From positions 14,890,572 through 14,954,571 of the forward strand of contig NC_057726.1 of NCBI RefSeq assembly GCF_004010195.1: a stretch of DNA of 64,000 nt, read 5' to 3'. Source of the stretch: Chiloscyllium plagiosum. Its lineage: Eukaryota. The notes under the pieces are model-generated. The model had not been told where the DNA came from and searched no databases. It saw only the letters and a program-made list of their open reading frames with translations. Position 1 is the first letter of the stretch. Every line of letters starts with the position of its first letter. The position numbers were made by a program, and so were the translations under genes. Of this stretch, positions 545-64,000 are shown piece after piece.

Positions 545-752
545 TTAAAAATCACACAACACCAGGTTATAGTCCAACAGGTTTGTTTGGAAGCACACTA
601 GCTTTCAGAGCACTGCTTCCTCATCAGGTAGCTAGATGAAGGAGCAGTGCTCCGAAAGCTAGTGCTTCCAAATAAACCTGCTGAACTATAACCTGGTGTT
701 GTTTGATTTTTAACTTTGTCCACCCCAGTCCAACACCGGCTCCTCCACATCA
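545..752. mobile_element. PLE family B mini-palindrome (inverted termini plus tail)
   Basis: Inverted arms span ~544-714, followed by a 38-nt tail (tttgtccaccccagtccaacaccggctcctccacatca). TSD tgttccatattg at 533-544 and 753-764. Hammerhead-like motif on the minus strand at 596-631. Confidence 0.8.
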
Positions 753-764
753 TGTTCCATATTG

Positions 765-1339
765 GATGGCATTTGAAGAAAGCACAGAATACAAAAGTAG
801 AGATATAATGATGAAACAGGAATATTGTGTGCTGTTCTGGTCACCACATCACAGGAAGAATGTAAATGCTGTGGAGAGAATGCAGAGAAGATGTTGCTGG
901 GGCTGGAGAATTGTAGCCACGTGGAGAGATTGGGGTTGTTTTCCTTAGAATAAGAAGGCTGAGGGGCAACGTGATTGAGGTATACAAAGTTCTGTGGGGT
1001 TGAGGGAGTAGACAAAAGAACCTGTTTCCCTTGGCAGAGAGTTCAAAAGCCAGGTGGTCATAGATTCAAGCTAAGTGGCAGAAGGATTAGAGGAAAAACA
1101 TTTTTATGCAGAGTGTGGTCAGTGTCCGGAATTCGCTGCCTGAGTTGGTGATGGAGGCAAAAATCCTACTCTCTGTTTAAAAAGTACTTGGGTCTGCACC
1201 TTAAGTGCTGTAAGCTGTGGTACAAAGGGCTGGGGATATGAAGGGAGATGGGATTAGAAAAGGTATTTAGGTGTTATTGGGTTGGCATGGGAAGATGGGG
1301 CCAAATGGCCCCCTTCTGTGCTGTATCATTTCTAGGTTC
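765..1339 (+). mobile_element. CR1 LINE 3' fragment
   Basis: EYKSRDIMM..EYCVLFWSPHHRKNVNAVERMQRR and LRGNVIEVYK motifs, followed by a typical CR1 3' UTR end (ggccaaatggcc...ctgtgctgta). Confidence 0.8.
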
Positions 1340-1590
1340 ACTGAGGGTGTTTACCAGTCCTACTGATCTAGCCTGGTCAAGTCCTAAAGGACTGAGCCGT
1401 CAGACTAATCCTGTAGCAGATGGTGAGGAACCAACAAGGGGGATGAACATTCTTGATCTCACACTCACCAGTCTGCCTGCTGCAGATACATCTGTCCATG
1501 ACAGTATTGTATATAAGAATGACCACTGCACATTATGTGTGTTGACAAAGTCCCACCTTCACATTGATGACACCCTCTGTCACGTCGAGT

Positions 1591-2455
1591 GGAAAAAACT
1601 AAAGAGATGCTTGTTGTCTTCAGGAGGGCATGGAGTGACCACTCTCCACTTGACATTGATGGCTCCCCTGTGGAGATCGTGAAGAGCACCAAATTTCCTG
1701 GCGTCCACCTGGCGGAAAATCTCACCTGGTCCCTCAACACCGGCTCCATAGCCAAGAAAGCCCAGCAGCATCTCTACTTTCTGCATAGGTTGAGAAAAGC
1801 CCCCCCCATCCCCCCCATCCTCACCACATTCTGCAGAGGGTTCATTGAGAGCACACTGAGCTGCTGCATTACTGCCTGGTTCAGGAATTGCGCCGTCTTT
1901 GATCGTAAGACCCTACAACAGATAGTGAGGACAGCTGAGAAGATCATTGGGGTCTCTCTTCCCTCTGTTACAGACATTTACTCCACACGCTGCATCTGAG
2001 AACATTATGGAAGACCCCACACAACCCTCACTCAAACTCTTCTCCCTCCTGCCATCGGGCAGAAGATAGCATTCGGTCTCTCTCGGCCAAACTGTGCAAT
2101 AATTTCTTCACCCAAGCCATCAGGCTCCTTAACACAGTATGATCGGATGCTTTCCCATGTGAAATTATTTGCACGACTTTTCAAATTGTTTCTAAAACAG
2201 TGGTTTTTCATGATCATTCACTATTACATTGTAATTTGTCCACCACCATGCCCATTGTCTTGTCAGGAATTAGTTCAAAACACGCAAGACAACACACTTT
2301 TCTTATGTACTTTATGCTGCTCTCTGTATGACTGTCCTCTCATGTAATTTATGCTGTCTATATAGCACCCTCGGTCCTGGAGGAACGCTGTCTCATTTTT
2401 ACTGTATCAGTTGTATATGGTAGAAATGACAAATAAAACTACTCTTGACTCTTGA
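1591..2455 (+). mobile_element. Rex1/Babar-type LINE 3' fragment
   Basis: KTKEMLVVFRR..VEIVKSTKFPGVHLAENLTWSLNT..AKKAQQHLYFLHRLRK..FCRGFIESTLSCCITAWF (RT C-terminus typical of Rex1/Babar). Ends in aataaa plus an (actcttg)n tail. Inserted between the W and HYH codons of the older LINE. Confidence 0.8.
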
Positions 2456-3032
2456 CTATCACTGTGCTGAATGGGATAGAATTCAAATAGGACAAGTAAC
2501 TCCAGTTTAGGCATCCAGGAGGTGCTCTGAGTCATCAATAGCAGCCAAAGTGTAGTTTTGCCAACAATCCACAACCTCATGGTCTGGCACGTGCCACTCC
2601 ACCATTAACATCAAGCCAGGGGATTAACCCTGGTTCAATGAAGAGAGCATATCAGGAGCAGCATCAGCTATACTTAAACCTGGTGAAGATACAACCCAGG
2701 ACCTACTTGTGTGCCAAGCATCATAATCACCATGTGATAGACAGACAGAGCTAAGCGATGTTAAATTTACTCCTTAGCAGAGTATCCCTAGTCTTCTGAT
2801 GACAAGAATTCTATGGATCTACAACCTTTGGAGTGAAGAAATTTCTAACTGTTTCATTTATCCTGCATCCAAGAGCTGAATTTGAACTTCCTGTCCCAAC
2901 TCTTGACCCGGAAGCACATGGGGAATCCAAAGGTTTCAGCATTGTGTTTGTCAGCAACATTTAACCTGGCCACTGCATTTGCTTCACACTTCACATTTAA
3001 GAACACGTGAACTAGGAGCAGCAGGTAGGCTA

Positions 3033-3273
3033 AGAGAAGGTGAGGACTGCAGATGCTAGAAATCAATGGCACTTAAAAAGCACAGCAGGTCAGGCAGCAT
3101 CCAAGGAGCAGGAGAGTCAATGTTTCGGGCACAAACCCTTCATCAAAAATGTGGGGGTTGGGGGTAGCGTGCCCAAAGGGGCTGAGAGATAAATGGGAGG
3201 GAGTAGGGCTCGGGGGCAAGGAAGCTTGGAATGTGATAGGTAGATGGAGGTGGAGGGTGATGGTGATAGGCAA
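3033..3273 (-). mobile_element. PLE family A 3' end, nested in a CR1 3' end
   Basis: Terminal motif gaggactgcagatgct...aagcacagcaggtcaggcagcatcc...cccttcatca plus purine-rich UTR. TSD caggtaggcta at 3022-3032 and 3274-3284. Confidence 0.75.
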
Positions 3274-4041
3274 CAGGTAGGCTATTTGGCTTCATGTATG
3301 GCTCTATCATTCAATAAAATTATGGTTGATCTGACTGTGGCCTCAAATCCACTTTATTGCCTCCCCCTGTGGCCCCACAGTTCTCACTGAGGGCTGATGA
3401 CAATTTTCAGGCCTTGAAACGGAGGCAACGTGGGAAAAGAATTAGGAAGCACCAGTCAATAACCAAAAGTAACAGGGGGAGAATTTTAACTGCCAGAGGT
3501 GAGCAGGTATGGTTGCTAGGAGGTTAAAAGAACCCAAAGTGCTGGATGTCAGAAAATCACAGGGACCCTCTGCAAATGTTTTCCATCCATCTCGTGGATA
3601 CAGTCCATTTGTCAAATGCATAGATTTTTTTCCTCCTTGGCACAAAATAGAGCACAGAAAAGCAGGAAGTGGCAGAGGATCCACGGAGATTGTGAGAATT
3701 TGAGGGGCCCTTCCTGTTTTCTCCATTCGGTCAGCCCAAGTGGAAGGAGGTGAGCTGAGTTTCAGGGTGCCTGACTCTTTTTTTCAGAGGTGGAGAGACC
3801 AGTTACCTAATGATAAAAGACTGCAGGGGTTGAAGGAGGGGAGGGGAAAGTACTCCATTGATCCATTGCTACCTTTGAGTTCTCAACCCCAAAATTGCAG
3901 TTGGCGACCCCCACCACCACATACACGCACACACACTTACTTTGGGAAGCCCTGTTCTAGACTCCCCGGCCTGGGAAAACAGCCTCTTCGCATCTAACGT
4001 CAAAAGTTCTCTAAAGGTTTCATATGATTCGATTCTAAGTA

Positions 4042-4314
4042 TGGTGATGGCGAACATGAGGGGGCATAGCTTTAAATTGAGGGGTGATAGATATAGGACA
4101 GATGTCAGAGGTAGCTTCTTTACTCAGAGAGTAGTAAGGGTATGGAATGCTTTGCCTGCAACGGTAGTAGATTCGCCAACTTTAAGTACATTTAAGTCGT
4201 CATCAGACAAGCATATGGACGTACATGGAATAGTGTAGGTTAGATGGGCTTCAGATTGGTATGACAGGTCGGCACAACATCGAGGGCCGAAGAGCCTGTA
4301 ATGTTCTATGTTCT
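4042..4314 (+). mobile_element. CR1 LINE 3' end
   Basis: MRGHSFKLRGDRYRTDVRGSFFTQRVVRVWNALP motif and a (tgttcta)n tail. Confidence 0.85.
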
Positions 4315-5789
4315 AAGACCACCTCTTCCTCCTCTGCACAGTATAGGCTCAGTTTTGAGGCATCCTCCTCAACCCAGGAGTCAATGTTGTGAACTTCTTT
4401 TACAACCCCCTCTAAGACAAGTATATCCTGGTATTAAAACAAAGACCAGAATTCCAGGTGTGGCCTTCCCGAAATCCCTGTGCAATGGCAGGAAGAGTTC
4501 CTTATTCTGACACTCAAGCTGCCCTGTAATTAAAAGTAACAGATCATTTTTCTTCCTACTTGCTTCCTGTAGATGCATATAGTAACATTGCCGTGGTACC
4601 TGCAGATGAACCCCCAAATTCCTCTTAGTACTCGTGTCACTTGCATCTCATCCTTTATTAAAAAACAATTCTGCCTTTTTAATCTCCTGACCAATAAACA
4701 GAACCATGAAACTTGCAAAGCTGAAGTTTGAGTTGTTCTATTGCTCGGCTGCATTTAATATGTTATCCTTACAGATTCCACGGGGAATAGCTGAACTGGA
4801 GAGCTATCATTTCCTGTAATCATATTTCTAAATTTCCATATCTATAATACTTTCCAGCTCATTGGATTTTAATATTCTGCATGTTCTATAAGTCATGGGG
4901 TAGATTTTACCAAGTGCTAATACTTTCCACAATTCCTTATGAACACCACACTGATATTCAATTCCATTTTCTAATGTAGCCAACGAACATTTCCAAAAGG
5001 TTATAATTATAATGATTTTAACCCAAACTAGTTATAATATTTGACGCTGATAAACCGGGAGTGTACATGATATCCTTTGAGAAACTGCACTAACATTTGA
5101 ATCGTCATCTTCCAATTCTTTGTTCCAGATCAGCAGGATTAAAACGAGGTGTTTTATTTCAGAAGGATTGACTTTATGCCAATGGGATCGTTTTTATATT
5201 TTATTGACCTGAAAGTTGTCATTAGCGCTTTGGAGTGTTGTTCTCTGGCCATGAAACTGTACATAAGTTAGAATTTTTCTGAGGTCATACTACGTTCGTC
5301 AAAGAGTATAGATGCGTAACTAAATTCTCTTTTTATGAAGAAAAGTTCTTCTACTGTCTAAACTCAAGTAATGGTCGATCCAAACTCTTTGTGCTAACCA
5401 CAGATTGGCCACTGAATTCACCTTGTTGCAAAACTCACATGTTGATGGATTCCTAAAAGGTCACTGAAGGTGACTGTTCAACTGCACGTATCATCACATG
5501 TGAAGGCTTCTTTTGTGAAATGCTTGGGGTGGTCTTGGTAGGAAAAGATTCCAAACTGGAAAGCCTGCAACAGCGAGACAGAGAAGGGAGAACTAAACCC
5601 TTTGAAGGTATTACTTGTGTAAAGGCCAGTACCATCGTTTTGGGTAAGAATGTTAATCTTAAACACTGGACTTGTACACGACCATACATAGTATTTGGTT
5701 GTGTCTATATCACAGACTAATATCCATGTTCCACCGACATTTCTCCCCCAATAATTGCAGCCATAAGCAGGTAATTTTTTTCTAATGTT

Positions 5790-6097: not shown

Positions 6098-6156
6098 TAT
6101 TGTTATTCCCTCAGGCCCATGGAGTTTATCTAAGCTATTGCTAACACAAGTACTGA

Positions 6157-21945: not shown

Positions 21946-23245
21946 ACACAGTCGCTACCTCACCAATTAAGTGCTGGGTAAGTTGGCCCACTGGGGACTT
22001 CCCAGCAGCAAGGCCTTGAAATGGCCAATTCATAGCCTACCTGATGGATGAGGAAAATGGCTGGCTTTTCAACTGGGGATACCAAGGTAAACTACCTGCC
22101 CTGCTGAGTGATGGAGGGCTTCATTTGCCCCACGCTGGGGCCATGTGGATGGGGACAAGGGCATGGCTTCTGAAAGTCATCCACTTGTCCTTTCCTCCAC
22201 CCAACTTGGTCACATTGTCTATAGGTGCTGAAATCATGTAGGAACTATGCTACTGACTGATTTATAGTAGCTGAGTAATTCAAATTCGAATTTTTAAAAA
22301 CATTATATTTTTACTGGTGCAGGAGGTCAAATTCCAGAACTCTTCAGTATTCTGAAATGAGTAATTTTTACTGTTATGACAGTGAATACATGTGCCTTTG
22401 TGTTACTCAGAGGTTATAACGCATGTCAGAATGTCTGCATCATTGGAAGAGAATGCTGCAGAGAAACAAGATTGAACGAAGTGATTGAGATCATCAGAGG
22501 CTCAGACCTGGCCTGAATATCAGACTACATGCAAACACTGAAACAGTTTTATTCTGAAAAACTGAAAATAAAAAAAATCCTGGGAGTTGTTTGGCAGCTA
22601 ATTTTATCATTCAGAAAGACTAGGAATGCTCAGTGTATGACCACTGTCTGTGGCCAGAGAAACAAAGTTAATGTTTCAAGGGATGACCTTACATCAGAAT
22701 GATAAAAAAAAGGAGACATGAAATCTTCATTCTGTTTCTCTCTCCCTCTCCAGTAGATGATGCTTGATATTCTAAATATTTCTTATTGATATTTAAATTT
22801 CCATTTTATGTCTTTATGTTTACTTGAAGTGTGATACCGTGTTGGCCTCTGTGAAGTTCTTATATTCAACCAGAGATATTTACAGTTGGAAGTGTATAAC
22901 CTGTTAAACATTGAATTGCATAAGCCATTAATCATAGGTCTTCCTAAGAGACTCCCTCTGTTGGTACATGTATGTATTGTAAACTTAAGTTGGCAAAATG
23001 CACTGTGCAATTTTCAATACATTACAGCTTCCATGTTGTTAAGTCTTCGATCTTGCTCTTCCAAAACTAGTTTCTTGCAATGAAAGCAGGAAGGCAGGGA
23101 GTAGTTAATGTGGTCACTAAATAGGCCAGCTTACAATATGCGGACAGAATACAGGCCTTCACTCAAGTGCTTAGTTAATCCGCATTTCGCCTCCCAGCTA
23201 TCCTGGAGCCCAGCAGAATGAGCGTTGAACAGCAAGAGTTTATAA

Positions 23246-23783
23246 CTAATGTTATCTACAAAATACCGTGCAAGGACTGTAACAAACACTACATTGGACA
23301 AACAGGCAAAAAGCTAGCCACCAGGATACATGAACATCAACTAGCCACAAAACGACATGACCCTCTCTAATTAGTATCCTTACATACAGATGAGGAAGGA
23401 CACCACTTCGACTGGGACAACACATCCATTCTAGGACAAGCCAAACCGAGACACGCATGAGAATTCCCAGAGGCATGGCATTCCAACCAGACCTCTATCA
23501 ACAAACACACCAAGTTTGACCCCATCTATCACCCCCTGAGAAAAAGAACAGGAAAGATATCAACATAGGAAATGATGTCACCACAAGAAATTACATCACC
23601 AACCCAAAGAAACCCAAACATAAAAATAGAAAGCAGGAATTATCAACAGTGCTTCGCCCGTGGGGTCCACTGAAGATGTTACCGAGTAGGGTGACGAAAC
23701 GTCTGGAAATGAACTTTCCAGCTCAGCGAGCAAACTTACGTCCAGAACCTCAACCTAAGCTTCACATCTTCTCAAAACTCACT
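23246..23783 (+). mobile_element. PLE family C (Penelope/Poseidon-like) 3' end with GIY-YIG endonuclease relic
   Basis: TNVIYKIPCKDCNKHYIGQTGKKLATRIHEHQLATKRHDPL*...HHFDWDNTSILGQAK..EAWHSN..SINKH, followed by a 3' UTR containing a hammerhead motif. Confidence 0.9.
23666..23707 (+). ncRNA. Minimal type I hammerhead ribozyme motif (PLE family C)
   Basis: UCCA-CUGAAGA-U-GUUACC(gaguag)GGUGAC-GAAA-CG-UC-UGGA. Core intact, 6-bp stem II, palindromic ACGU stem III, 4-bp stem I. Activity untested. Confidence 0.75.
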
Positions 23784-26764: not shown

Positions 26765-26777
26765 CCATGGAGCCATG

Positions 26778-30347: not shown

Positions 30348-30590
30348 TTGGTGAAGCACTTTGAGCTGTTCCACTTTGTTAAGGTGATATATAAATGGCA
30401 GTTGACCTGAATGTTACCCCTCCCCCCCAACCCAGTGGAAATTATCTTTGGTTACCAGCCTGATTTTGAGCCAACAGCTCATCCATCAAATGTAACAAAG
30501 CACAGAAAAGGAGTTTTGCCTCATGCCAGTATGATTGGGGGTGTGATGCAGCACCCCATGTCCGATGCCCAGCCGTTACTCGATGGAGTC

Positions 30591-30816
30591 GAAGAGTGTG
30601 GTGCTGGAAAAGCACAGCCGGTCAGGCAGCATGCGAGGAGCAGGAAAGTTGAAGTTTCAAGTATAAGCTCTTCATCAAGAATGGTTCCTGATGAAGAGCT
30701 TATGCTCAAAACGTCGACTCTTCTGCTCCTCAGATGATGCCTGACCTGCTGTGCTTTTCCAGCACCACACTCTCCGACTCTGGTCTCCAGCATCTGCAGT
30801 CCTCACTTTCTCCTCA
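30591..30816. mobile_element. PLE family A mini-palindrome with two back-to-back decayed hammerhead motifs
   Basis: tttcaagtataagctcttcatcaagaa / ttcctgatgaagagcttatgctcaaaacgtcga; tail tctccagcatctgcagtcctcactttctcc. Imperfect TSD ttactcgatggagtc (30576-30590) / ttatttgatggagtc (30817-30831). Confidence 0.8.
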
Positions 30817-30997: not shown

Positions 30998-33053
30998 TGA
31001 TTTGGAGACACTGGTGTTGGACTGGGGTGTACAAAGTTAAAAAATCACACAACATCATGCTATAGTCCAATAGGCTTATTTGGAAGCACTAGCTTTAGGA
31101 GCGCTGCTCCTTCATCAGATGGTTGTGCAGTATAAGATCGTTAAGACACAGAATTTACGGCAAAACTTTACAGTGTGATGTAACTGAAATTACATATTGA
31201 AAAAGACCTGGATTGTTTGTTGAGTCTCTCATCTTTTAGAATGACCATGTTGGTTTCAGTTCTTTCATATGTAAATCCCAGAACTTTTTCAAAAGTTACA
31301 TTCTCATGTGAACTTTAACAATTGGTGCCATGTCAGCCCAGATAATGCATTTAAGGTGTGAGCTGCTCTATGTGAGACTGTGCCACAATGGTCAGACCGA
31401 TTCTAATCTAAAAAAAAGATTTACATGAATTCATGCAGTTTTTGAGCAAAGTAAAATGCAATTCTGCAAGTACACATTCACCCCACAATCTGATATGTGT
31501 ATGTGTGCAAGGGGTGTGTGGGGGGTCAGGGTGGCAGGGGTTATAAGTGTCTGTGAGACAGTGTGTGTGTGTATGTGAGTGAGAGTGTAAAGGGTATAAG
31601 TCTGTGAGAGGGTTCGTGTGGGAGCATATGAGACAGGGTCTGCGTGAGTGTATGGGTCTGTAGGAGTGTGTGTGTGTATAGTGCAATGGGGTCATCTGTA
31701 ATGTGACATGAACCCATGGTCCCGGTTGAGGCCATCCCCCATAGATACTGAACTTGGCTATCAGCCTCTGCTCAGCCGGTGTTCATTGTTGCCTGTCCCG
31801 AAGTCCACCTTGGAGGACGGTCACCCGAAGGTCTGAGTTCGAATGTCCCAGACCGCTGAAGTGTTCTCCAATTGGGAGGGAACACTTCTGTCTGATTGTT
31901 GTGCGGTGTCCATTCATCTGTTGCTGTAGCTCTGTGTGGTCTCACCGATGTACCATGCCTGAGAGCATCCTTGCCTGCAGTGTATAAGATAGACAATATT
32001 GGTTGAGTTGCAAAAGTATCTGTCACGTACATGGTGGGAGGTGTCCCCATGTGTAATTGTGGTGTCCATGTCGACATTCTGACATGTCTTGCAGCGTCTA
32101 CTGTGACAAGGTTGTATGGTGTTCCCTCCCAGTCGGAGAACACTTCAGTGGTCCGGGACATTTGACCTCAGACCTTTGGGTGACCGTCCTCCAAGGCAGA
32201 CTTCGGGACAGGCAAAACGAAAAATGGCCAAGCAGAGGCTGATACCCATGGGGATGGCCTCAACCAGGACCTTGGGTTCATGTCACACTACAGGTGACCC
32301 CATTGCACTGTGCGCACACACACACACACACTCGCACACACATAGACACAGACACTCCTACACGCGCACACTCTTACACACACACGCATATTCCTTCAGG
32401 TACACAAACTCCTACAGATCCATACACTCACGTACACTCCCACACTCACACACACATCCCCTCTCACAGACTTATACCCCTTTACACTCAAACACATACA
32501 TACACTCTCTCATGGACACTCACAAGCCACCACCACCTCCCCACCCCCGAACACACACCCACATGCACACATACACATATCAATTTGTGGGGTAAATTTG
32601 TACTTGCAGAATTACATTTTACTTTGCTCAAAAAGTGTATGAATTCATGTAAGATTCTGTAAATCTGTTTTTTAGATTAGAATCAGTCTGACCATCGTGA
32701 CACAAGACAGTCTCACACAGAGCAGCTCACATCTTAAATGCATTACCTGGGCCGACATGACACCAATTGTTAAAGTTCACTTGAGAATGTAACTTTTAAA
32801 AAAGTTTTGCAATTTCCATATGAAAGAACTGAAACCAACATGGTCATTCTAAAAGATGAGAGACTTAACAAACAATCTAGCTCTTTTTCGCTATATAATT
32901 TCAATTGCACCACACTGTTAAGTTTTGCTGTAAATTCTGTGTCTTACGATCTTATACTTCACAACTACCTGATGAAGGAGCGGCGCTCCGAAAGCTAGTG
33001 CTTCCAAATAAACCTGTTGGACTATAACCTGGTGTTGTGGGATTTTTGACATT
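30998..33053. mobile_element. PLE family B (Neptune-like) 2-kb inverted insertion with two GIY-YIG 3' ends pointing outward
   Basis: Left arm (minus): QPCHSRRCKTCQNV..CNSTNIVYLIHCRQGCSQAWYIGET..MNGHR..CSLPIGEHFSG. Right arm (plus, from ~32117): CSLPVGEHFSGPGH..DLWVTVLQG..GLNQDLGFMSHY. Both have CA-rich UTRs. TSD tttactggttta (30986-30997) / tttactgattta (33054-33065). Confidence 0.88.
32966..33000 (+). ncRNA. Minimal type I hammerhead ribozyme motif (PLE family B)
   Basis: UAC-CUGAUGA-A-GGAGC(ggc)GCUCC-GAAA-GC-UA-GUG. Core intact, palindromic AGCU stem III. The mirror copy at 31087-31121 (-) has GAAA mutated to UAAA. Confidence 0.7.
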
Positions 33054-33065
33054 TTTACTGATTTA

Positions 33066-33445: not shown

Positions 33446-34499
33446 CGCCCCTCAGTTGACTTTACTAGCTGCTTGCTACTGCAAACTTTGCATATTGCTG
33501 AAAATAAGAGACATGCTGTTGATGCTTTTTGTCTGCACTCATCAGATTCAAGTACACCAAATCTCAAAGGGACTAGCAGTTTTATACTGTGTGAGAAACT
33601 GGTGTTGATTGGTGAACAAATTTGGTAGTTAACTGTTTCTGGTGCATTGAGGGAATGCCTCCACCAATCGAAATCCATTTATCAACCAATCAGCACCATC
33701 TTCTTGTGCCGTGTAAATTGTTACTTCCTTTGAGATGTGGTGTTCTTGTGATTCTGTCCTGATGAATGCAGAACAAAAAGCTTCAACAATATGCCTCTTT
33801 TTGTCAGCAATGCTATTAAAAGCAGTATTTCCTTTTATCTTTATCTGAAGTATCCATAGCTTCAGCCACAATATAAAGTACTTGAGTTTAGAACAGTGTG
33901 TAGGATGGAATGAATGCATCTTATTTTTGAAAACTCCAAAGCGTGAATTCCAATTTAATGCACCAACTGTGTGCTGAAACTGATAACACTCTCTTCATGT
34001 CCATGATTTATAAGAAAGAGGAACACTGCACAAACGCCGAAATTTCAACTAAGATCCAAGGTTGTTTGTGCACAATGTATCTTTCATTTATGAAATTCCA
34101 TGAATGCTAAATTAATATTCCAATATTAGAAAAAGGAAGGGGTGGGAGATGGCCTGCTGGAGGTCTTTAATATTCAGAAAGGTATGACAGTATAGACATA
34201 CAAGAGATGTATCCACTTGTGAGGAAGTCAAAAAGCAGAGGCCATTAATATTGGATCGTCACTAATGAATCCAAGAAGGAATTCAGGAGAAATGTCTCTC
34301 AACAAGGAACTGGTGAGAATCTTGAATTTGCTCCAATATGCAACACAAATACAGTAAAGTCTCAAAAAGTCAAATTACATGGGAATCCCTGCAGGGTTTG
34401 AACTGAGTAAAGCTTTGTTATATATGAGCTGGTCCTGAGGGGGCAGCCACACAACCTCACAACTGACAGCTGAGAAAGCGAATGGGGCAATGGCAGTAT

Positions 34500-36484: not shown

Positions 36485-37055
36485 ACTGAAAGTGTTGTAG
36501 ATGCTGAAGATCAAAAATAAAAATAGAAATTGCAGGAAATGCTCAGCAGGTCTGGCAGCTCTGTGGAGAGAAAGCAGAGTTAACATTTTAGGTCCAGTGA
36601 CCCTCAGAGCTAATGGTAGCTAGGAAACAGTTGTTTTTGTACTGAAGAAAGGGTGGGGGGAAGGGGGGAGGAGTAAACAATAGGTGGGGATAGAGCCCAG
36701 AGAGATAGAAGAACAGTTGGACTGACGAAAGGAGTGGCTAACAGTCAGCCTAGGAGAATGGCTACTAATGGGGACTGTCAGTGGCTTACAATGTGTTGTG
36801 TGTAACAGCAGACCATATGATAACAAGGCCTGGAGTGTGGGGGTTGGGGTGAGGACATAGGAGGTGGTGTCTCAGGCCCTAAAATTGTTGAATTTGAAAT
36901 TGAGTCCAGAAGGCTGAACAGTTCCCAAGCGGAAAATGAGGTGCTGTTCTTCCAGCTTGCACTAAGCTTCACTGGAGCACTGCAACAAGCCTGAGGCAGA
37001 GATGTTGGCCAGGAAACACGGTGGGGCGTTGAAATGGCAGGCAACTGGAAGTTCA
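36485..37055 (-). mobile_element. PLE (family D terminus) with GIY-YIG C-terminal relic
   Basis: Minus strand reads ELPVACHFNAPPCFLANISASGLLQCSSEA*CKLEEQHLIFRLGTVQPSGLNFKFNNF, followed by UTR and terminus. Confidence 0.8.
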
Positions 37056-39311
37056 GGATCCTTTTTACTGACCTTGAATTATTCTAAGGTCTTTAATCAT
37101 ATTTTACAATGACTTTTCATGCTGTCTGCGGCTGCCCACTGTCTCTGGTCTTGATCTCTGCTGAGACTATTATGGGAGGTAGTTAAGTGATCGTTAGCTC
37201 ATTTTATTATGCTGTAATATTTTAGTTCTAACATGTGCTTCCCTTGTTTACCTTGTTCTATTTTGTACAGAATTGTCTTTTTTTTTCATTTTTAATCACG
37301 AGATAATTGACAACAATGAAAGCTGAGAAACTGCTGATGAATTGTAGCTATATCTCCTCATCATGCCAAAAAGTTTAACAATACATGGGGAACGTTGTAG
37401 GTGACTCATTCGTGTCTACAGAATATCTGTATCACCTTGAGGACATCAGCCAGGCAGCAACTTGTATCTTTATTGTAAATGGTAAATGCTAATATCAGTC
37501 CAAAGTGAATTGTAGAAGAACTGCAAAGGTGAGGCTGGAACACTCTCTCCCCTCCACCCCCCCCACCCCCCTTCCCCCGCACTGTTTATAGTGTAAGAGT
37601 TAAAAGGGAGGCTGGGAGCATCTGCAAATTGCAATCTATGCCAAGACACATGTTTGTTTGATTTCCACTATTACTACAAACTGCAATGGGTTAAGGGCAT
37701 TTTTGACTTATTGGCACCACCCAATCCCCATGCATGTCAGATAAAGCAAATTTTACTCTTATTCACTACTGCTGCTGTCATATCAGTATTAATTTAGAAA
37801 CAAAAGCACATTTTTGTCCTTTTCATCTATTTTAGTTTCTCTCTGCTGAATTATGGGGAGTCTTGTGCAATTTTTCGATACTTGCCAGACATTTCTCCCA
37901 TACCCACTAGTCATTAGGGCTGGTAATGGATACCTGGGGGATACAGATTTATTTCTGTTGATGAACTTGACTTGGATCAGGACCCAAGTTTCAAAGGTTG
38001 AATGGAGTGCAATAATCCTCTTTGTGTCATAATCCTTTGATGCAAGTGTTCTTCTAAATGATTAAAGCAAGGTGCAGAGTTCTGGTGTTATGCGGAGTAT
38101 ACCAGCAAGGTTTTAATGAAAGAGAAAGAAGACAAATTAATCGGGAAAGTAGCCAGTAGGACATGTTTTGAAAGCCTGAATATTATAAGAGGGAGATAAC
38201 AAGAAGGAAATTAAAGAGTCATGAAACTGAGTGGACTTAGACTTCAATGGAGTGAGTTTAAATGATGCGGAAGGAGTGTGGATACATTTGGAGGTTAGGA
38301 GGGGAAAGACAGAACAGTAAAGAGGTGCACTGACCATAGTAGGGTTGGTGGAGTATAGAAAGAATGAATGTTATACTTGAGAAGAGAGTTACTGTCAGAA
38401 TACTGTCAGTATTTCATATCGTATTCAAAAATGCAAGTCCAGGAGGGGTGCTCAAGGATGGGAATTATGGAGACTTGGCCCTGAAGTAATTCCACAGAGG
38501 CTGTCACCAAGTTACCTTTTAATTACACATGAGCAGACCTGGACTATAGTCAGGCACCAGAGTGCCAGTATCCACAAGCACTCACCCTTTGGAAATGTCA
38601 GCCAAGGCCTTCTGATTGGGTGTTAATTTGATCCAATCAGGGACCTCACTTTCTAAGAGGTGCAGCTGGCTAAACTCATTATAATCATTGCAGGCCCCAG
38701 TTCTGTTCCTGTTTCAAATGTGCAGAGATGTGAAAAGTTCTAGCTCTGTGAGCCTGACCTTTAGAAATGGCCAGCTGCAGACCCTTTGTGGGTTCTCAGA
38801 TGAGTCATACTGGATCAGAAGTCAGGTCGGGTCATCCAGTACGGTTCTGAAGGAGAGCCACCAGATTGGAAGTGCTTACTGTTTCTCTCTACAGACCTGT
38901 CGAGTTTCTCCAACAATTTCTGTTTTTCTGAGTAACCTAGTAGGTTGCTGGCTCTTGAGGCTGATTGCATGGAAAGCCTGCCTCGGGTTTCTGGTGCTGT
39001 CCAAATATTAAACTAAAAGGATCAAATCGAAAGCATTCCTCCCTGTGTCACCACTTACATATCTCACTTCCACTCACTCCCATACATGTCCCATGAATGC
39101 TATCGCCTGCTCTGCTACCCCATGTCTCTCTATCCATGGCTCCTTCTACCCTTTTGCCAAGTTAGTTCTTATTTCCACACGTCACCCTTTCTGTCTTCAC
39201 ATATCATGCCAACTCACCTAAATTTTTAAAAAATCTATATTGCAGACTATACTCAGTTGAGAAAAGAACATGCATTCAAAATATTTTTACTGTTTTGACA
39301 CTACTTGGGAA

Positions 39312-41817: not shown

Positions 41818-42880
41818 CATGGATGTAGGTTTCTTGCTGAGCTGGAAGGTTCGTTTTCAGACATTTCATCTCCATACTAGGTAACATCATCAGTGAGCCC
41901 CCAGATGAAACCATGGTCTGAGTAGTCTAGCAGTCATTTCTGAGATGTCTTTGATGAAGGAGAGAGTGGCTAGTGTTTCTGGACGTGTTTTGTCTGCTTG
42001 TTGGGATTTATTGCTGAGAAATCATCAGACTGTGTTCATTGGGTACCCGTTCTTTTTGAATACATTGTATAGTGTCAGACTACTCAGGCCCCTTGCTATC
42101 ATGGTACCCCACAAACTCACCAACACACTAAAACAGCATCTAAAGAACTTGAAAGACCCTATACAGACAAGAAGCAAAACTAATGTCATTTACAAAATAC
42201 TGTGCAAGAACTGTAACAAATACAACATTGGACAAACGGGCAGAAAACTAGCCACCAGGATACATGAACGTCAACTAGCCACAAAAAGACATGACCCACT
42301 GTCACTAGTACCTTTACGCCCAGATGAGGAAGGACACCACTTCGACTCGGACAATACATCCATCCTAGGACAAGCCAAACAGAGACATGCACAAGAATTC
42401 CGAGAAGCATGGCATTCCAACCGGAACTCTATCAACAAACACATTGACTTGGATCCCATTTACCACCCCCTGAGAAAAAGAACAGGAAATGCCATCACCA
42501 CCGGAAATGACACCACCAACCCAACCTAAACACATAAGTAAAAAGTGGGTCATACCACCAGTGCTTCATCTGGAGACTTACTGATGATGTTAGAGTGGTG
42601 CTGGAAAAGCATAGCAAGTCGGGCAGCCCTTTGTTGATGAAGGGCTTTTGCCTGAAACATCGATTTTCCTGCTCCTTGGATGCTACCTGACTTGCTGTGC
42701 TTTGCCAGCACCACTCTAATCTTGACTCTAATCTCCAGCATCTGCAGTACCCACTTTTGCTTCACTGAAGATGTTATCCAGTATGGTGACGAAACGAATA
42801 GAAAATGAACCTTCCAGCTCAGCGAACAAACCTATATCCAGAACCTCCACTTGAGCTGCAAATCTTCTCAAAACTCGCTA
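41818..42880 (+). mobile_element. PLE family C copy with an inverted terminus (41818-41915), an inverted internal segment (~41917-42072), a sense GIY-YIG part and a nested family A insert (42593-42763)
   Basis: Sense: RLLRPLAIMVPHK..TNVIYKILCKNCNKYNIGQTGRKLATRIHERQ..EAWHSNRNSINKHIDLDPIY. Minus piece: LYNVFKKNGYPMN..PETLATLSFIKDISEMTARLLR. The nested insert has TSD actga(t/a)gatgtta at 42580-42592 and 42764-42776. Confidence 0.88.
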
Positions 42881-44411: not shown

Positions 44412-44541
44412 AGGATTCCTGAAGAAGTGCTCATGCTTGAAACATTGATTCTCCTGCTCCTTGGATGCTGCCTGACCTGCTGCGTTTTTCCAGCAACACA
44501 TTTTCAGCTCTGATCTCCAGCATCTGCAGTACTCACTTTCT
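44412..44541 (+). mobile_element. PLE family A terminus
   Basis: Decayed hammerhead cctgaagaagtgctcatgcttgaaacatt plus tail. TSD tctataataact at 44400-44411 and 44542-44553. Confidence 0.8.
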
Positions 44542-44629
44542 TCTATAATAACTGTAACAAAGCCTCAAAGTGGCTTTATCAAACCACACAACACTTCATT
44601 TTTCCAAAACTCTAGTGGAAACAGGCTGA

Positions 44630-49361: not shown

Positions 49362-50893
49362 TTTCTCAGAGGATTGTGGGTGCTTGACGTTCAGTGTCCC
49401 AGTGGGCGGTGGTAATTCAGGGCTCGGATTGATGTATCTTTGCTCACTAGTGTAATTGAGAGATATTTGGGTGGAGCAGGAAGGGTCAGTTCATGTAGAA
49501 GTTCAACACAGTTGGGACAAAGGGTCAGGGTACTAGGATCTTATATTCAAAGTACTTCACATTCAATTGATTGTGTTTGAAGTGTCTTCCTGTTTTGTAG
49601 CATCAAATTTGCATATAGTAAGGTTTCACAAACAGACCATAAGGAACAGTGTCTCATTGGTTAGCACTGCTGCCTCACAAGACCAGGGTCCTGGCTTCAA
49701 TTCCAGCCTCAGGTGACTGTCTGTGTGGAGTTTGCACATTCTTCCCTGGTCTGTGTGTGTTCCCTCTGGGTGCTCCAGTTTCCTTCCACAGTCCAAAGAT
49801 GTGCAGGTTTGCTGAATTGGTCATGCTAATTTGTCCATAGTGTTCATGGATGTGTAGGTTAGGTGCATTAGTCAGGGGGAAATGTTGAGTAATAGGGTAG
49901 GGGAATAGGTCTGGGTGGGTTACTCTTTGGAGGGTCAATGTGGACTTGTTGGCCTGTTTCTACACTGCAAGGATTTTTTGATTCTAGAAATAGACCATCC
50001 AACCCATCCTGATGAAGGGCTTTTGCCCGAAACGTCGATTTTGCTGCTCGTCGGATGCTGCCTGAATTGCTGTGCTCTTCCAGCACCACTGATCCAGAAT
50101 CTGGTTTCCAGCATCTGCAGTCATTGTTTTCTCAGAGGATTGTGGGTGCTTGACGTTCAGTGTCCCAGTGGGCGGTGGTAATTCAGGGCTCGGATTGATG
50201 TATCTTTGCTCACTAGTGTAATTGAGAGATATTTGGGTGGAGCAGGAAGGGTCAGTTCATGTAGAAGTTCAACACAATTGGGACAAAGGGTCAAGGTACT
50301 AGGATCTTATATTCAAAGTATTTCACATTCAATTGATTGTGTTTGAAGTATCTTCTTGTTTTGTAGCATCCAATTTGCATATAGTCAGGTTTCACAAACA
50401 GACCATAAGGAACAGTGTCTCATTGGTTAGCACTGCTGCCTCACAAGGCCAGGGTCCTGGCTTCAATTCCAGCCTCAGGTGACTGTCTGTGTGGAGTTTG
50501 CACATTCTTCCCTAGTCTGTGTGTGTTCCCTCTGGGTGCTCCAGTTTCCTCCCACAGTCCAAAGATGTGCAGGTTTGCTGAATTGGCCATGCTAATTTGT
50601 CCATAGTGTTCATGGATGTGTCGGTTAGGTGCATTAGTCAGGGGGAAATGTTGAGTAATAGGGTAGGGGAATAGGTCTGGGTGGGTTACTCTTTGGAGGG
50701 TCAATGTGGACTTGTTGGCCTGTTTCTACACTGCAAGGATTTTATGATTCTAGAAATAGACCATCCAACCCATCCTGATGAAGGGCTTTTGCCCGAAACG
50801 TGGATTTTGCTGCTCGTCGGATGCTGCCTGAATTGCTGTGCTCTTCCAGCACCACTGATCCAGAATCTGGTTTCCAGCATCTGCAGTAATTGT
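49362..50893. repeat. 766-bp tandem duplication (49362-50127 / 50128-50893), each unit containing a CR1 piece, an HE1 SINE and a PLE-A terminus
   Basis: Near-identical ORFs offset by exactly 766 (49649/50415, 49675/50441, 49915/50681). About 15 substitutions counted by eye. attgttt microhomology at the junctions. Confidence 0.92.
50006..50039 (+). ncRNA. Minimal type I hammerhead ribozyme motif (PLE family A)
   Basis: AUC-CUGAUGA-A-GGGC(uuuu)GCCC-GAAA-CG-UC-GAU. The duplicate at 50772-50805 has the cleavage triplet GUC changed to GUG. Confidence 0.7.
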
Positions 50894-58882: not shown

Positions 58883-59875
58883 TAGAGCTGTAGAGTCACA
58901 CAACACGGAAGCAGACCCTTCAGTCCAATAAGTCCATGCCAACCATAATTCCAAGCTAAACTAGTCCCACCTGCCTGCGCTTGGCCTATCGAAACATTTC
59001 TTATTCATGTACTTAACTAAATGACTTTTCAACTTTGTAACTGCACCTGCATCCACCACTTCCTCTGGAAGATCATTTCACACAAAAAAAGTTGCCGCTC
59101 ATCTTTTATTATACTTTTCTCCTCTCACCTTAAAAATATGCCCCCTAGTCTTGAATTCCTCCATTCTGGATTAGTGGTGCTGGAAGAGCACAGCAATTCA
59201 GGCAGCATCCGAGGACAGGCAAAATCCGAGGACAGGCAAACTCGACGTTTCGGGCAAAAGCCCTTCATCAGGAATAAAGGCAGAGAGCCTGAAGCGTGGA
59301 GAGATAAGCTAGAGGAGGGTGGGGGTGGGGACAGAGTAGCATAGAGTACAATAGGTCAGTGGGGGAGGAGGTGAAGGTGATAGGTCAGGGAGGAGAGGGT
59401 GGAGTGGATAGGTGGAAAAGGAGTTGGGCAGGTCGGACAAGTCCGGACAAGACAAGGGGACAGTGTTGAGCTGTAGGTTAGAAACTAGGATGAGGTGGGG
59501 GAAAGGGAAATGAGGAAGCTGTTGAAGTCCACATTGATGCCCTGGGGTTGAAGTGTTCCGAGGCAGAAGATGAGGCGTTCTTCTTCCATGCGTCTGGTAG
59601 TGAGGGCTGTAGTAGCGGGTTTGTTTCAGGACATGATTGAAGAGCTTCAGGGCAGAGGGAATGACCTGGGAGTTGCAGTGGGAGAGAGACTCCCTGAGAT
59701 TCTTGTAGAGAGAGGAGGAAAACTTCTTCAAGGCAGGCATCCCCAGCACCACTAATCCAGAATCTGGTTTCCAGCATCTGCAGTCATTGTTTTTACCTCG
59801 TTGAATTCCTCCATCCTAGGGAAAAGATAACTGCCATTCACCTTATCTATACCCCTCATAGTTTTGTAAACATCT
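58883..59875 (-). mobile_element. CR1 3' fragment interrupted by an internally deleted PLE family A copy (59165-59800)
   Basis: TSD ttgaattcctccat at 59151-59164 and 59801-59814. The insert reads (minus) GMPALKKFSSSLYKNLRESLSHCNSQVIPSALKLFNHVLKQTRYYS joined to EERLIFCLGTLQPQGINVDFNSF, with termini at both ends in inverted orientation. Confidence 0.85.
59241..59274 (-). ncRNA. Minimal hammerhead ribozyme motif (PLE family A)
   Basis: Reverse complement UUC-CUGAUGA-A-GGGC(uuuu)GCCC-GAAA-CG-UC-GAG, core intact. Confidence 0.68.
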
Positions 59876-60624: not shown

Positions 60625-61219
60625 GTAGAGAAGATTGTCGATAAAAGGAAAAATAAAAAAGGGAAATGGGAGTACCTTATACGATGGAAAGGTTATGGAA
60701 GTAATGAAGACACTTGGGAGCCAGAACATCACCTCCTGCATTGTGAAGAATTTATTGATGAGTTTAATGGACTCAACGCTTCCAAAGAAAAGCGAACTAA
60801 ATCAGGGAAACGGGGAAATAGCCCAAGACAGGTCTTAAGGGACAATCATGGAACTTCTCCACTGAGAGCCTATGAATCCACAAAGGGGAAGGGTGGAGGA
60901 TTACGAAGAAAGCGGACTAATAATGCACATCAAAAACAAAAGCGGGGTACAATAGGGAGGGATGGAAAGCACACATCTGGAGAACCCAAGAAAATCATCG
61001 CTACTAAAACGGTGCATTACAGAACAACTGCGAGTGGAGTACAGATTATGCCTTACAGAAAGACTGATAACTCATTTCAGAATGGGGATGCTAGACATGG
61101 CAAAAATGCATTACAGTTTGACAATACCTCAAGGCAACAGGAAGTGAATGTGGACCTGGGAGAGCAGGACTTTGCAGAGGATGGATCAGTTGCCGATTCT
61201 CCTTTGGTAAACGGAGTAG
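60625..61219 (+). CDS. CDYL2: CDYL2 internal exon (chromodomain plus linker; equivalent to human exon 2)
   Basis: Acceptor tttctctccaatag|GTA and donor GTAG|gtatgt. The 595-nt frame is open: [50 protein letters not shown]...[17 protein letters not shown]...FQNGDA...LGEQD...NGVG. It matches the vertebrate CDYL2 chromodomain as recalled ([50 protein letters not shown]). Phase 0 start, phase 1 end. Confidence 0.96.
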
Positions 61220-61535
61220 GTATGTAATAAGTATTGGTGTTACAATGTCAGCAAGTCATTCAGCTTCTCCCCTCCCCCACTCACCTTCCCCCAGGGCAAC
61301 GCTGGTCTTTATCCTACAGTGTTCACTGATGTGCACATACTTGGAGATTGCATGAACATTTTTAATTATTGCAAGCAGCAGGACTCAAACTTGCAAACAG
61401 TTCAGTTAAACATGCCTCCATCTTTGAGATAATTTTAAAAATAGATTGCTCCATGCTTGCTAACAGTAATGTTCATTGACTAAATGGAATTGTTCATTTT
61501 GCAGACTGACATTTCACCGCATTCTGTTTCAATAG

Positions 61536-62726: not shown

Positions 62727-62956
62727 TTTACTCAATGGATGAGGGCACCACTGGCCAAGCACAGCACATTTCCTTTCCTGAAGGGAAGAATGGGCTTTTA
62801 TAACAATGGTCACAATTAAGCCAGCTCTTTGTTCTTAATTTTACCAAATTCAAATTGCACCACCTGCTGTGGTAGGATTTGAACCCACATACCCAGAACA
62901 TCAGCCTTGGGTTCTGGATTGCGAAATCTACTGACATTCCCATTGTGTCACTGCCA
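62727..62956 (-). mobile_element. tRNA-headed SINE (same family as 8352), internally deleted
   Basis: Reverse B box ggatttgaacc at 62875-62885; reverse tail atggatgagggcaccactggcc. Confidence 0.7.
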
Positions 62957-63317
62957 CCCCTATTTAATGCCTCCTGTTGAACCAAACAGTTCTGGTCCAG
63001 TCCTCAACTTGAACCCTGTCAATTTCAAAATCCCAATTATAATCCCACTCCTCCACCCGCCTGCCTCCCAAGTAATTCCCAGTTCTGTCGGTCCATGTTC
63101 CATTCTTTGAAATGCTAAATGTGCTGATAGCAATGCTCTTTGTTTCCCTCGTTCAACTGCCTCATATTTTTCTGAGAGGCTGTGTGTGTCAAAATTGGCT
63201 GACCCTAATTTGGTCTTCCTCGGGGGTTGGCTGGGCATGAACCGCAATCAGCCTGAAGAAGGGCTTATGCCCAAAACATCGACTGTCCTGCTCTTCAGAT
63301 GCTGCCTGACCTGCTGT

Positions 63318-63321
<4 letters not shown>

Positions 63322-63362
<41 letters not shown>

Positions 63363-63398
63363 CTCTCTCTCTCGTACACGCACGCGCGCGCACACACA
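63322..63398. repeat. (CT)n / (CA,CG)n microsatellite directly after a PLE-A terminus (63250-63321)
   Basis: Long tctctc run followed by cacgcacgcgcgcgcacacaca. Confidence 0.9.
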
Positions 63399-63670
63399 AG
63401 ACTGCTGTAACCAACGCAGAAACACATATTTGCAAGGAAACTCTTGAAGTATCTTACAACCATTCTTTGAAAATTTGCTCATAGGATGTGGGCATCACTG
63501 GCCAAGCACTGAGTTGGTCGTTATTAAGATGACCGTTATTTGAAAATTTGTGGCTGTAAATTCCTTTCAGACCAATCCTACATCTGAAACACTTCAGAGA
63601 GTGCTTATGAAATTAATACCTGGGATGGCCGGGTTTTCTTAGGAGGAAAGGGAAATTAGGGGAAATGAGA

Positions 63671-64000
63671 ACCTTGCAACCACATGGGATTAATGTGGAT
63701 TCCACCAGTTTCCTCATTTCCCCTCCCCCCACCTTATCCCAGTCCCAAGCCTCCAACTCGGCACCACCCTCTTGACCGATCCATCACCATTCCCATCTAT
63801 CCGCTCCACCCTCCTCTCTGACCTATCACTCTCACCACCACCTTCATCTACCTATTGCATTCTCAGCTACCTTCCCCCCAGCCCCACCCCCTCCTATTTA
63901 TCTCTCAACCCCCTTGGCCCACAAGCCTCATTCCTGATGAAGGGCTTATGCCCGAAATGTCGATTCTCCTGCTCCTCGGATGCTGCCTGACCTGCTGTGC
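63671..64000 (+). mobile_element. PLE family A 3' end (runs off the window)
   Basis: TLQPHGINVDSTSF GIY-YIG tail, pyrimidine-rich UTR and hammerhead motif ctgatgaagggcttatgcccgaaatgtc (~63934-63961; stem III mutated). Confidence 0.85.

Follow-up and report, generated by a model that had tools for sequence, protein, structure and literature searches.

Hammerhead ribozymes of amniote introns (RECK, C10orf118/CTCL) are single-copy, canonical and conserved. The shark motifs described here likewise lie within a host intron in the sense orientation, but they are high-copy, minimal and decaying. That minimal hammerheads occur in the termini of Penelope-like elements (PLEs) is already known (Cervera and de la Pena 2014, PMC4209133; Frangieh 2024, PMC11167929). 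Those of the 2014 study share with the shark motifs a type I layout without loop III, a palindromic 15.2-16.2, an extra base before stem II and the G10.1-C11.1 pair; the systems also have in common that a genome holds several families, that most copies are solo and truncated, and that opposite-strand pairs occur, whereas the shark stems are shorter. The shark itself is absent from the text and the searchable supplement of that study.

Other features are shared with EN+ PLEs (Craig 2021, PMC8557442; Arkhipova 2013, PMC3846280), namely 5′ truncation, an inverted 5′ copy, target duplications, a 30-40 bp tail that is often present at one end only, and a TATA box with an Inr-like motif inside the terminal repeat. 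The shark differs from these in that stubs predominate and in that 5′ ends lie at a presumed start site. For PAc, a Poseidon element of Anolis, the published account (Frangieh 2024, PMC11167929) describes two internal RT starts with extension of both strands, uncut RNA as the main template, and a hammerhead that requires protein. PAc and the shark elements are alike in that the tail is defined by two RT start sites and the hammerhead precedes these by about 100 nt; use of uncut RNA as template and extension of both strands would also be shared. They differ in that the PAc ORF begins at stem II whereas that of shark family B begins at the tail end, in that PAc is of the Poseidon type whereas shark families A and B carry a zinc finger (Neptune-type), and in that a 5′-end pile-up, found in A and B, is not reported for PAc in the accessible part of that account. 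Non-LTR retrozymes (Cervera and de la Pena 2020; Li et al. 2026, bioRxiv) also contain type I hammerheads related to PLE termini, but they form head-to-tail arrays, whereas the shark copies are dispersed solo or head-to-head stubs; a non-LTR retrozyme identity was considered and rejected, head-to-tail hammerhead units not having been found.

Here we analysed a window of 64,000 nt from Chiloscyllium plagiosum (NC_057726.1, positions 14,890,572 to 14,954,571, forward strand). Its motifs are very probably hammerheads of the minimal type I kind, carried by the terminal repeats of dead Penelope-like copies; these copies occur at background density in the CDYL2 introns, and the motifs likely do not cut the CDYL2 pre-mRNA.

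Hammerhead motifs in the CDYL2 introns

The host gene had been named as CDYL2 in an earlier, sequence-only reading of this DNA, and this was confirmed by exon 2 (60625-61219, + strand), which encodes a chromodomain (PF00385, E 5.8e-18) and has CDYL2 as its best PDB match (E 4e-32). Exon 1 lies ~23 kb upstream of the window, so that the window comprises CDYL2 intron 1 and the start of intron 2. A Pfam scan of the 150 longest of its 388 stop-to-stop frames returned the chromodomain and PF09004 only.

We scored a hammerhead as strictly intact if it combined CUGANGA, a stem II of at least 4 bp, GAAA, a palindromic stem III, UH and a stem I of at least 2 bp. The window contains four such motifs, against none in each of 200 block dinucleotide shuffles. 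These are a family C motif (23670+, spanning 23666..23707) with stem I CCA/UGG, stem II GUUACC/GGUGAC, the palindrome ACGU and a predicted cut after GUC at 23703; a family B motif (32969+, 32966..33000) with UAC/GUG, GGAGC/GCUCC, AGCU and a predicted cut after CUA at 32997; a family A motif (50009+, 50006..50039) with AUC/GAU, GGGC/GCCC, ACGU and a predicted cut after GUC at 50036, in a stub that begins 29 nt upstream of the cut; and a second family A motif on the opposite strand (59271-). Since CDYL2 is on the + strand, the first three are sense, as the earlier reading had stated. The CUGANGA, GAAA and NUH core is in type I order, as in minimal hammerheads, the pair closing stem II (4-6 bp) is G10.1-C11.1, and a single extra base follows position 9 (A, A and U in families A, B and C); stem I has 2-4 bp, and stem III is a loopless palindrome, ACGU in A and C and AGCU in B.

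Other parts of that reading required correction. Motifs are present at the positions that it listed, its 59241- being the low coordinate of the motif at 59271-. Stem III, said always to be a short palindrome, is one in the intact copies (ACGU, AGCU), but AAGCUU is confined to decayed copies and the palindrome at 63934+, listed under family A, is broken to a wobble (GAAAUGUC). The family B copy listed at 596- has a broken stem II (GAAGC/GCUCU), and neither of these two is strictly intact. Decayed copies from five families were found, all within CDYL2; further decayed families are indeed present, as proposed, including AAGCUU-family hammerheads with a mutated GAAA (33759+, 33756..33790; 29078-, 29045-29082) and an older relative of family A with GGGUC/GACCC and a GUU triplet (36570-36612, - strand). 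An Rfam search at E<=5 gave no match to a hammerhead model, and its microRNA matches, inverted stubs folding as hairpins, were discarded.

The expectation that stems vary while the core is kept was borne out: subfamily-level changes are compensatory and the core is fixed, which points to selection in active master elements. A family C stem I pair is GC in 11, CG in 9 and UA in 7 of 30 copies, a family B pair changes from C-G to U-A in 7/45, and a family A pair from G-C to A-U in 5/112. Homology-found copies show one clearly covarying pair per family, with statistics inflated by relatedness, and column 16-27 of the C/D stem II is unpaired in 14/30.

Element families and their coding relics

Three well-sampled families (A, B and C) could be tied to RT and GIY-YIG relics. 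In the window, family C is represented by a 3′ fragment (23244..23780, +; tblastn E 5e-34) that runs from a GIY-YIG relic (23245-23559) through a short UTR with a TATA-like box to the hammerhead and tail, and by inverted and direct fragments (41820..42880) with a GIY-YIG relic at 42038-42484; a family A pair splits these fragments, and their hammerheads (41856-41897, -; 42761-42802, +) are decayed. Family B forms a head-to-head pair at 31029..33058 (31029-31885, -; 32119-33058, +), with arms 89% alike and zinc finger and GIY-YIG relics at 31698-32123 (-) and 32123-32291 (+), and a short head-to-head pair at 544..752, in which both hammerheads are decayed (596-, 635+) and the 3′ ends are one short and one long.

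Family A contributes a 3′ fragment at 59164..59607 (-), with an endonuclease C-terminus (59491-59607), a pyrimidine-rich UTR and the intact antisense hammerhead (59241-59275), and another at 63638..64000 (+), which continues past the window and carries an endonuclease end and the hammerhead with the broken palindrome (63930-63965). It is also present as a short head-to-head pair of a GAGC/GCUC subfamily (30586..30815), whose arms begin 32 and 30 nt upstream of the cut, and as a solo stub (44415..44547, +) that begins with ATTCC and has a 12-bp target duplication and a decayed hammerhead. A further family A copy (50772..50805, +), with a 12-bp target duplication and the non-cleavable triplet GUG, lies in the second unit of an apparent 766-nt local tandem duplication of mostly non-element DNA. 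An old family E fragment (36496..37057, -) combines an endonuclease relic (36836-37057) with a decayed hammerhead near 36570-36612. Pfam detected 0/3 of the window's endonuclease relics. Several motifs had been placed directly downstream of GIY-YIG relics; they do lie downstream, with intervals of about 110-120 nt in family C, 220 nt in family A and 680 nt in family B.

Outside the window, a family B copy (L172) has the order terminal repeat, ORF relic, terminal repeat, with RT (PF00078), a CX4CxxC linker and GIY-YIG; its direct terminal repeats (pLTRs), each with a hammerhead, flank the ORF at 583-764 and about 4290-4451. All 13 homologues of L172 are shark proteins, one of which has DKG, RT, zinc finger and endonuclease. 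RT followed by a C-terminal GIY-YIG is found as broken relics in L172, L168 (RT match E 8.7e-8) and L164 and in intact order in the homologues P0002, P0008 and P0077, with GIY-YIG Pfam scores mostly under the curated cut-off. Family A copies contain PCxxxxCKTC, VIYC..YIGET and an RT relic, and long homologues of the family C relic gave RVT_1 in 7/10 scanned and weak GIY-YIG matches in 5/10. A and B share a CX2-5CxxC linker between RT and endonuclease, by which they would be classed as Neptune-type (or Nematis); the linker is absent from the C homologues P0026 and P0043, so that family C would be of the Penelope/Poseidon type. When 117 long-ended family A copies were screened for a full-length element, only local duplications emerged, and no full copy with both terminal repeats was found for A or C. 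A genome protein search for an intact C ORF, with 150 of 88,060 candidates scored, yielded nothing but relics, none with an open frame of more than 331 aa. A structure predicted for the C endonuclease from its sequence alone was too poor to use (pLDDT 54, pTM 0.23).

Genome background and self-cleavage

A genome sample of 1,367,051 bases held 60 intact motifs, against 0-2 in shuffles. Extrapolated genome-wide, this amounts to about 1.6e5 intact motifs, compared with 9,000 in Xenopus and 4,000 in coelacanth (PMC4209133), counts that are not strictly comparable because the descriptors differ. Copies number ~280 per Mb and make up 4.8% of the sampled bases; stubs dominate, and 58 of 188 complete copies are intact. 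At the sampled density, the probability of at least four intact motifs in 64 kb is 0.31. The window's density is that of the genome sample and copies in intron 1 are evenly oriented (18 sense, 19 antisense), which speaks against a special link to CDYL2. Among the intact copies of intron 1 there is a small excess in the direction favoured by the earlier reading (3/7 sense vs 1/9 antisense; one-sided exact p ~0.19).

Self-cleavage of the intron had also been raised. Sense copies might cut the CDYL2 pre-mRNA alone, as a cis pair (50009/50775) or in trans, and may be selected for cutting. We consider this very improbable, even though three intact copies are in the sense orientation, the motifs at 50009 and 50775 are on the same strand 766 nt apart, with a catalytic half kept in 50775 that could in principle cut 50009, trans partners are offered by the 1.6e5 or so intact motifs, and minimal dimers cleave weakly in vitro (PMC4209133). 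The copies show neither enrichment nor strand bias and are decayed like others. In a lone motif stem III cannot close, and nearest-neighbour folding, which ignores tertiary contacts and proteins, predicts that stem I, of 3-4 bp, is mostly unformed in context and that the dimer fold lies 6.5-20 kcal/mol over the cofold minimum. For the sole like-with-like sense pair (50009/50775) the predicted distance from the dimer fold is 23.5 kcal/mol, and intron 1 offers the B and C sense copies no intact partner of their own kind. A single S. mansoni motif did not cleave, 8/9 Xenopus dimers remained uncleaved, and the anole motif required protein. A domesticated intronic hammerhead, expected to be low-copy, canonical in its stems and competent as a monomer, was also considered and rejected, as the motifs do not have these properties. 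The hammerheads in the CDYL2 intron are genuine but unremarkable, and they likely do not cut the CDYL2 transcript.

Insertion ends and a proposed mechanism

Copies have an optional 30-40 bp tail and an inverted 5′ copy, as in Penelope-like elements. Their 3′ ends are bimodal in all three families, about 35 nt apart (A +60-68/+97-101, B +53/+91, C +41/+76-84). Inverted pairs account for 130/256 copies in A, 73/111 in B and 16/52 in C, and 65 of the 72 classifiable pairs combine one long and one short 3′ end. Target duplications measure 9-17 bp and reach at least 9 bp in 23/89 solo A copies, versus 6/878 in the control. Together with the RT and GIY-YIG relics, these tails, inversions and target duplications support the original assignment of the motifs to Penelope-like termini as minimal type I hammerheads.

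The 5′ ends pile up before the ribozyme, with 88/232 in -35..-27 in family A vs 6 in an equal window upstream and 36/110 in -38..-27 in family B vs 3 upstream, the windows having been picked after the histogram was seen. At the cut (-1..+3) there are 9 (A) and 4 (B), not above neighbouring positions; an apparent pile-up there (25/177) was mostly due to an older family diverging inside the hammerhead, or to internal deletions. Both families have a conserved TATA-type box ~30 nt upstream of the pile-up, which in A is TTATCT at -63..-61 (17/17 references), not a canonical TATA, and in B a TATA-like box at -69..-63 (21/22 references). The best reading of the pile-up in A and B would be that reverse transcriptase, copying uncleaved leader RNA, runs off at the transcription start. 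Against a start site, family C has a TATA box in 16/17 references yet no pile-up at the predicted start, with 38/48 copies extending >70 nt upstream, and L172, the sole full-length B copy, reaches to 95 nt ahead of the cut, beyond the proposed start. A cap-derived extra G was looked for, with G at -1 in 7/33 and at -2, one of six positions inspected, in 14/33. A splice acceptor like that of D. virilis was rejected for the edge of stem I, where the A references have no AG.

Alternatively, RT could drop off or switch template once it has just passed the hammerhead of the 3′ terminal repeat, because of structure, a bound protein or the kind of fold-back self-priming that has been proposed for rotifer elements. 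We regard that as a real, if doubtful, possibility for this one step: the edge matches the hammerhead stem I arm in A and B, microhomology is frequent at junctions, C has no pile-up, and self-priming on an antisense template has been argued by Arkhipova 2013 (PMC3846280). However, the edge is sharp upstream and tails downstream, like run-off at a fixed end, it lies past and not before the stem II hairpin, and the T/A box upstream is conserved while the spacer sequence is variable; plain fold-back predicts mirror-image 3′ ends, not long-and-short pairs. It is very improbable that the short copies form a non-autonomous family of their own (retrozyme or SINE-like), amplified via hammerhead-cleaved monomers or circles. 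Most A copies are indeed 95-130 bp with target duplications, and retrozymes stem from PLE termini and are known in one chondrichthyan, but the cut is not where copies begin, element sequence forms no head-to-tail arrays (the repeats found are local duplications that include flanking DNA), the 5′ ends become ragged in the downstream direction, long endonuclease-bearing copies belong to the same subfamilies, and the stubs are without the upstream box needed to drive them.

Under the run-off reading, transcription from a TATA-type/Inr promoter in the terminal repeat would begin a few bases ahead of CUGANGA, and the mRNA would therefore open with the hammerhead. The element protein would prime cDNA from two sites, singly or together, which lie 55-100 nt downstream of the cut, and on uncut RNA reverse transcription would run off at the RNA 5′ end to give the 95-130 bp stubs. 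Priming of both target strands, one per site, would yield head-to-head pairs whose two ends differ, one being long and the other short. Cleavage would require either a ribozyme dimer or the protein of the element, and lone intronic relics would thus be inert.

Discussion

The shark motifs are uninformative about CDYL2. Their possible value lies in their scale (about 1.6e5 intact motifs) and in their insertion geometry, with copies that start before the ribozyme and not at the cut. We are evenly divided on whether hundreds of thousands of Neptune-type stubs record a transcript start and a priming geometry, in which a TATA/Inr start lies just before the hammerhead, uncut RNA is copied, and a protein dimer uses both tail sites on a single RNA to prime the two target strands, with strong-stop-like insertions and long/short pairs as the outcome. 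If true, the in vitro model would gain in vivo support on the scale of a genome, and there would be an argument against cleave-and-circularise for these families. A genome-wide intronic sense/antisense count of intact vs broken copies would measure the cutting of host RNA by lone minimal hammerheads, and insertion ends may make the role of the Penelope hammerhead testable from genome statistics.

Hammerhead motifs in CDYL2 introns 1 and 2

A scan for CUGANGA...GAAA with direct read-out of the sequence recovered motifs at all six places where the sequence-only reading had put hammerhead ribozymes. Under a strict descriptor of intactness (CUGANGA...GAAA, stem II of at least 4 bp, palindromic stem III, UH and stem I of at least 2 bp), a search found four intact motifs in the window (23670+, 32969+, 50009+ and 59271−); each of 200 dinucleotide shuffles, done block by block, gave zero. 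The remaining two of the six places hold damaged copies: that at 63934+ reads GAAAUGUC, and that at 596− has a broken stem II. The hammerhead at 50775+ is also damaged, its triplet being GUG. Besides A (stem II GGGC/GCCC), B (GGAGC/GCUCC) and C (GUUACC/GGUGAC), the window holds two more families in decayed form: one of AAGCUU type (33759+, 29078−) and family E, an old relative of A, near 36600 on the minus strand. An Rfam search of the window gave no match to hammerhead models, and a homology search counted 37 fragments of terminal repeats, from families A, B, C and E.

The proposed intronic setting held. Frame 60625–61224+ encodes a chromodomain with CDYL2 as nearest match, its exon (60625–61219+) is bounded by splice sites, and an exon with a splice donor and MASGDLYE, which we take to be the pattern of the upstream CDYL2 exon, lies 22,982 nt upstream of the window start. 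The window therefore lies in CDYL2, which is on the plus strand, and takes in intron 1 and the beginning of intron 2. It also carries LINE 3' relics at 1571–1996+, 39397–39969−, 12192–12657 and 24606–26953 (PF09004 match with E = 2e-15 and many LINE-like ends), presumably CR1-like, and a SINE-like repeat with a tRNA head, present in dispersed copies (families D7, D11, D12 and D16; 41098–41303, 44047–44261, 49643–49956, 6681–6955 and 54243–54522), presumably HE1-like. Upstream of CDYL2 exon 1, stretch L115 has open frames at ~4000–6200, one with LVDTGA, which we assume to resemble Gag and aspartic protease of an LTR retroelement.

The motifs are real and belong to a known kind, without specificity for CDYL2; a special link to this gene was not borne out. 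A genome sample made up of 140 10-kb stretches, placed at round coordinates of large contigs (1,367,051 bases without N), contained 60 intact motifs, or 43.9 per Mb (bootstrap 32.6–56.4), and five shuffles of it contained 0–2. At this density, the four intact motifs per 64 kb have P = 0.31. Extrapolation to the whole 3.56-Gb assembly gives ~1.6 × 10^5 intact motifs, the sample being drawn from large contigs. Copies of the Penelope-like elements (PLEs) occupy 4.8% of sampled bases, with 152 (A), 59 (B), 27 (C) and 46 (E) copies per Mb. The check for sense/antisense depletion, run on intron 1 only, counted 18 sense and 19 antisense copies; complete hammerheads were intact in 3/7 sense and 1/9 antisense cases, and in 58/188 in the genome sample.

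Penelope-like carriers

The hammerheads of families A, B and C are indeed borne by Penelope-like termini, as had been proposed, being linked to reverse transcriptase (RT), GIY-YIG, terminal repeats, tails and head-to-head pairs. Families A, B and C each show two 3' ends ~35 nt apart, the interval forming the tail, and head-to-head pairs are frequent in all three. A whole family B element in stretch L172 consists of a terminal repeat with hammerhead, an ORF relic encoding in order RT (PF00078), a CX4CxxC linker and GIY-YIG, a long UTR and a second repeat. This element (L172:583–4451) is the sole full-length one among the 1.4 Mb sampled; its ORF is interrupted by frameshifts and stops, with an ATG directly at the tail end, its 3' UTR is CA-rich, and its 3' hammerhead has an internal deletion. 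In all family B copies AATAAA lies ~10 nt past the cut site (33007–33012 in the window), a possible polyadenylation signal within the terminal repeat.

The family B homologue P0002 carries DKG, RT, zinc finger and endonuclease in a single frame, and every one of the 13 proteins homologous to the family B endonuclease comes from a shark, the closest from carpet sharks. P0002 is a near-complete Neptune-type ORF from another shark and represents 54 member sequences, hinting at a more recent amplification there. Pieces of the endonuclease also occur in shark gene models (P0007 and P0009–P0013; septin 5a, PPP1R12A-like, NOXP20-like, GPCR), where they would be either exonisation or annotation artefacts. 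Family A copies have zinc finger and GIY-YIG motifs ~210–235 nt upstream of the hammerhead, and stretch L164 holds a family A RT relic. In family C, the relics match long proteins; of those scanned, 7/10 have RVT_1 and 5/10 weak GIY-YIG hits, the zinc finger being absent from these long homologues; RT is carried by the family C stretch L168 (E = 8.7e-8). Craig 2021 (PMC8557442) gives the linker between RT and endonuclease as a clade criterion, and by this criterion A and B classify as Neptune-type and C as Penelope/Poseidon-type.

In the open-access literature, with Repbase/Dfam outside the search, we found no shark description of these hammerhead families. The preprint bioRxiv 10.64898/2026.07.22.740005 reports one chondrichthyan with retrozymes and PLEs, and the shark families may stand in its supplements.

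Stem variation, predicted folding and probable past selection

Function had been argued from variable stems around a kept core. Among copies gathered by homology rather than by hammerhead descriptor, subfamily-level variation lay in loop II and at positions N7 and H, with change at core positions limited to CpG decay and scattered substitutions. All three stems differ between families, pairing being kept throughout. One family C stem I pair is GC in 11, CG in 9 and UA in 7 of 30 distinct rows, covariation equalled in 0/500 shuffles, a significance inflated by kinship of the copies; 14/30 rows show no pairing at one stem II column. Compensatory changes occur in family B (C-G to U-A, 7/45) and family A (G-C to A-U, 5/112). 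Together with the conserved core, these changes argue for selection in the master elements, and the argument stands for these and not for the genomic relics. A younger C-related subfamily (stretches L133, L168, L230, L231 and L116) supplies 6/60 intact sampled motifs and has stem I GCA/UGC, a GUU triplet and a purine mismatch within stem II.

Folding predicted stem II and left stem I mostly unformed, in a model without tertiary contacts and protein. In the same model the dimer hammerhead lay 6.5–20 kcal/mol above the minimum of the cofold, and 23.5 kcal/mol above it for the sole like-with-like sense pair, 50009/50775. These unfavourable folds agree with published tests: a minimal hammerhead with no monomer and low dimer cleavage (PMC4209133), activity in 1/9 Xenopus dimers (bioRxiv 10.64898/2026.07.22.740005) and a protein requirement for cleavage in Anolis (PMC11167929). 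The interval 49362–50893 shows an apparent 766-nt local tandem duplication, with units 98% identical; its breakpoint falls within the tail of the family A stub (a short terminal copy), where there is a short TTGTTT microhomology, and it may be real or an assembly artefact.

Copy ends and a possible route of stub formation

Mapping of copy ends used BLAST and 56 natural references, which share non-inverted upstream sequence; the counts leave out groups matched by fewer than three references, 78 family E copies and 29 copies lying next to N or at the border of a stretch (24 A, 1 B, 4 C). Relative to the cut site, 88/232 family A 5' ends fall at −35 to −27 (6 and 38 in equal upstream and downstream windows) and 36/110 family B ends at −38 to −27 (3 and 10), all windows being set post hoc. 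Ends at the cut site itself numbered 9 (A) and 4 (B), without excess over adjacent positions. Flanks were unrelated (0/558 pairs shared in the first sample, one local triplet aside), and target duplications of 9–17 bp accompany 23/89 solo family A copies (control 6/878), with duplications at 3/21 solo family B copies (control 0/200); the mapped boundaries are thus real. No report of such a 5'-end pile-up or promoter was found in the open-access literature searched.

In A and B, a conserved box lies ~30 nt upstream of the 5' edge, with a variable spacer: TATAAAT-like in 21/22 family B references and TTATCT in 17/17 of family A, whose edge, TCATTCC or TTATTCC, we take to be Inr-like. The edge might mark a transcription start, or could be explained by drop-off or fold-back at the hammerhead. 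Counting against a start site, family C has a TATA box in 16/17 references yet no pile-up, 38/48 copies extending past −70; a cap-derived G, looked for at copy 5' ends, was not demonstrated; and the L172 element begins at −95. Inverted pairs numbered 93, and the 72 classifiable by their 3' ends comprised 65 long+short, 3 long-long and 4 short-short, when independent choice would make about half long+short.

We regard a start site combined with paired priming as an even call for the origin of the stub ends. A promoter in the terminal repeat would start RNA immediately upstream of the hammerhead, and the element protein would prime at both tail sites and copy uncut RNA up to its 5' end, giving stubs of 95–130 bp. 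Priming of both target strands, each from a different tail site, would yield the head-to-head pairs as hairpins, and longer copies would derive from the 3' repeat. The published systems offer likenesses in the rotifer elements, with TATA and Inr inside the terminal repeat (PMC3846280), and a difference in the TATA-less D. virilis Penelope (PMC2377424); the Anolis element PAc resembles the proposed route in vitro in its two start sites, use of both strands, dimer and uncut template (PMC11167929).
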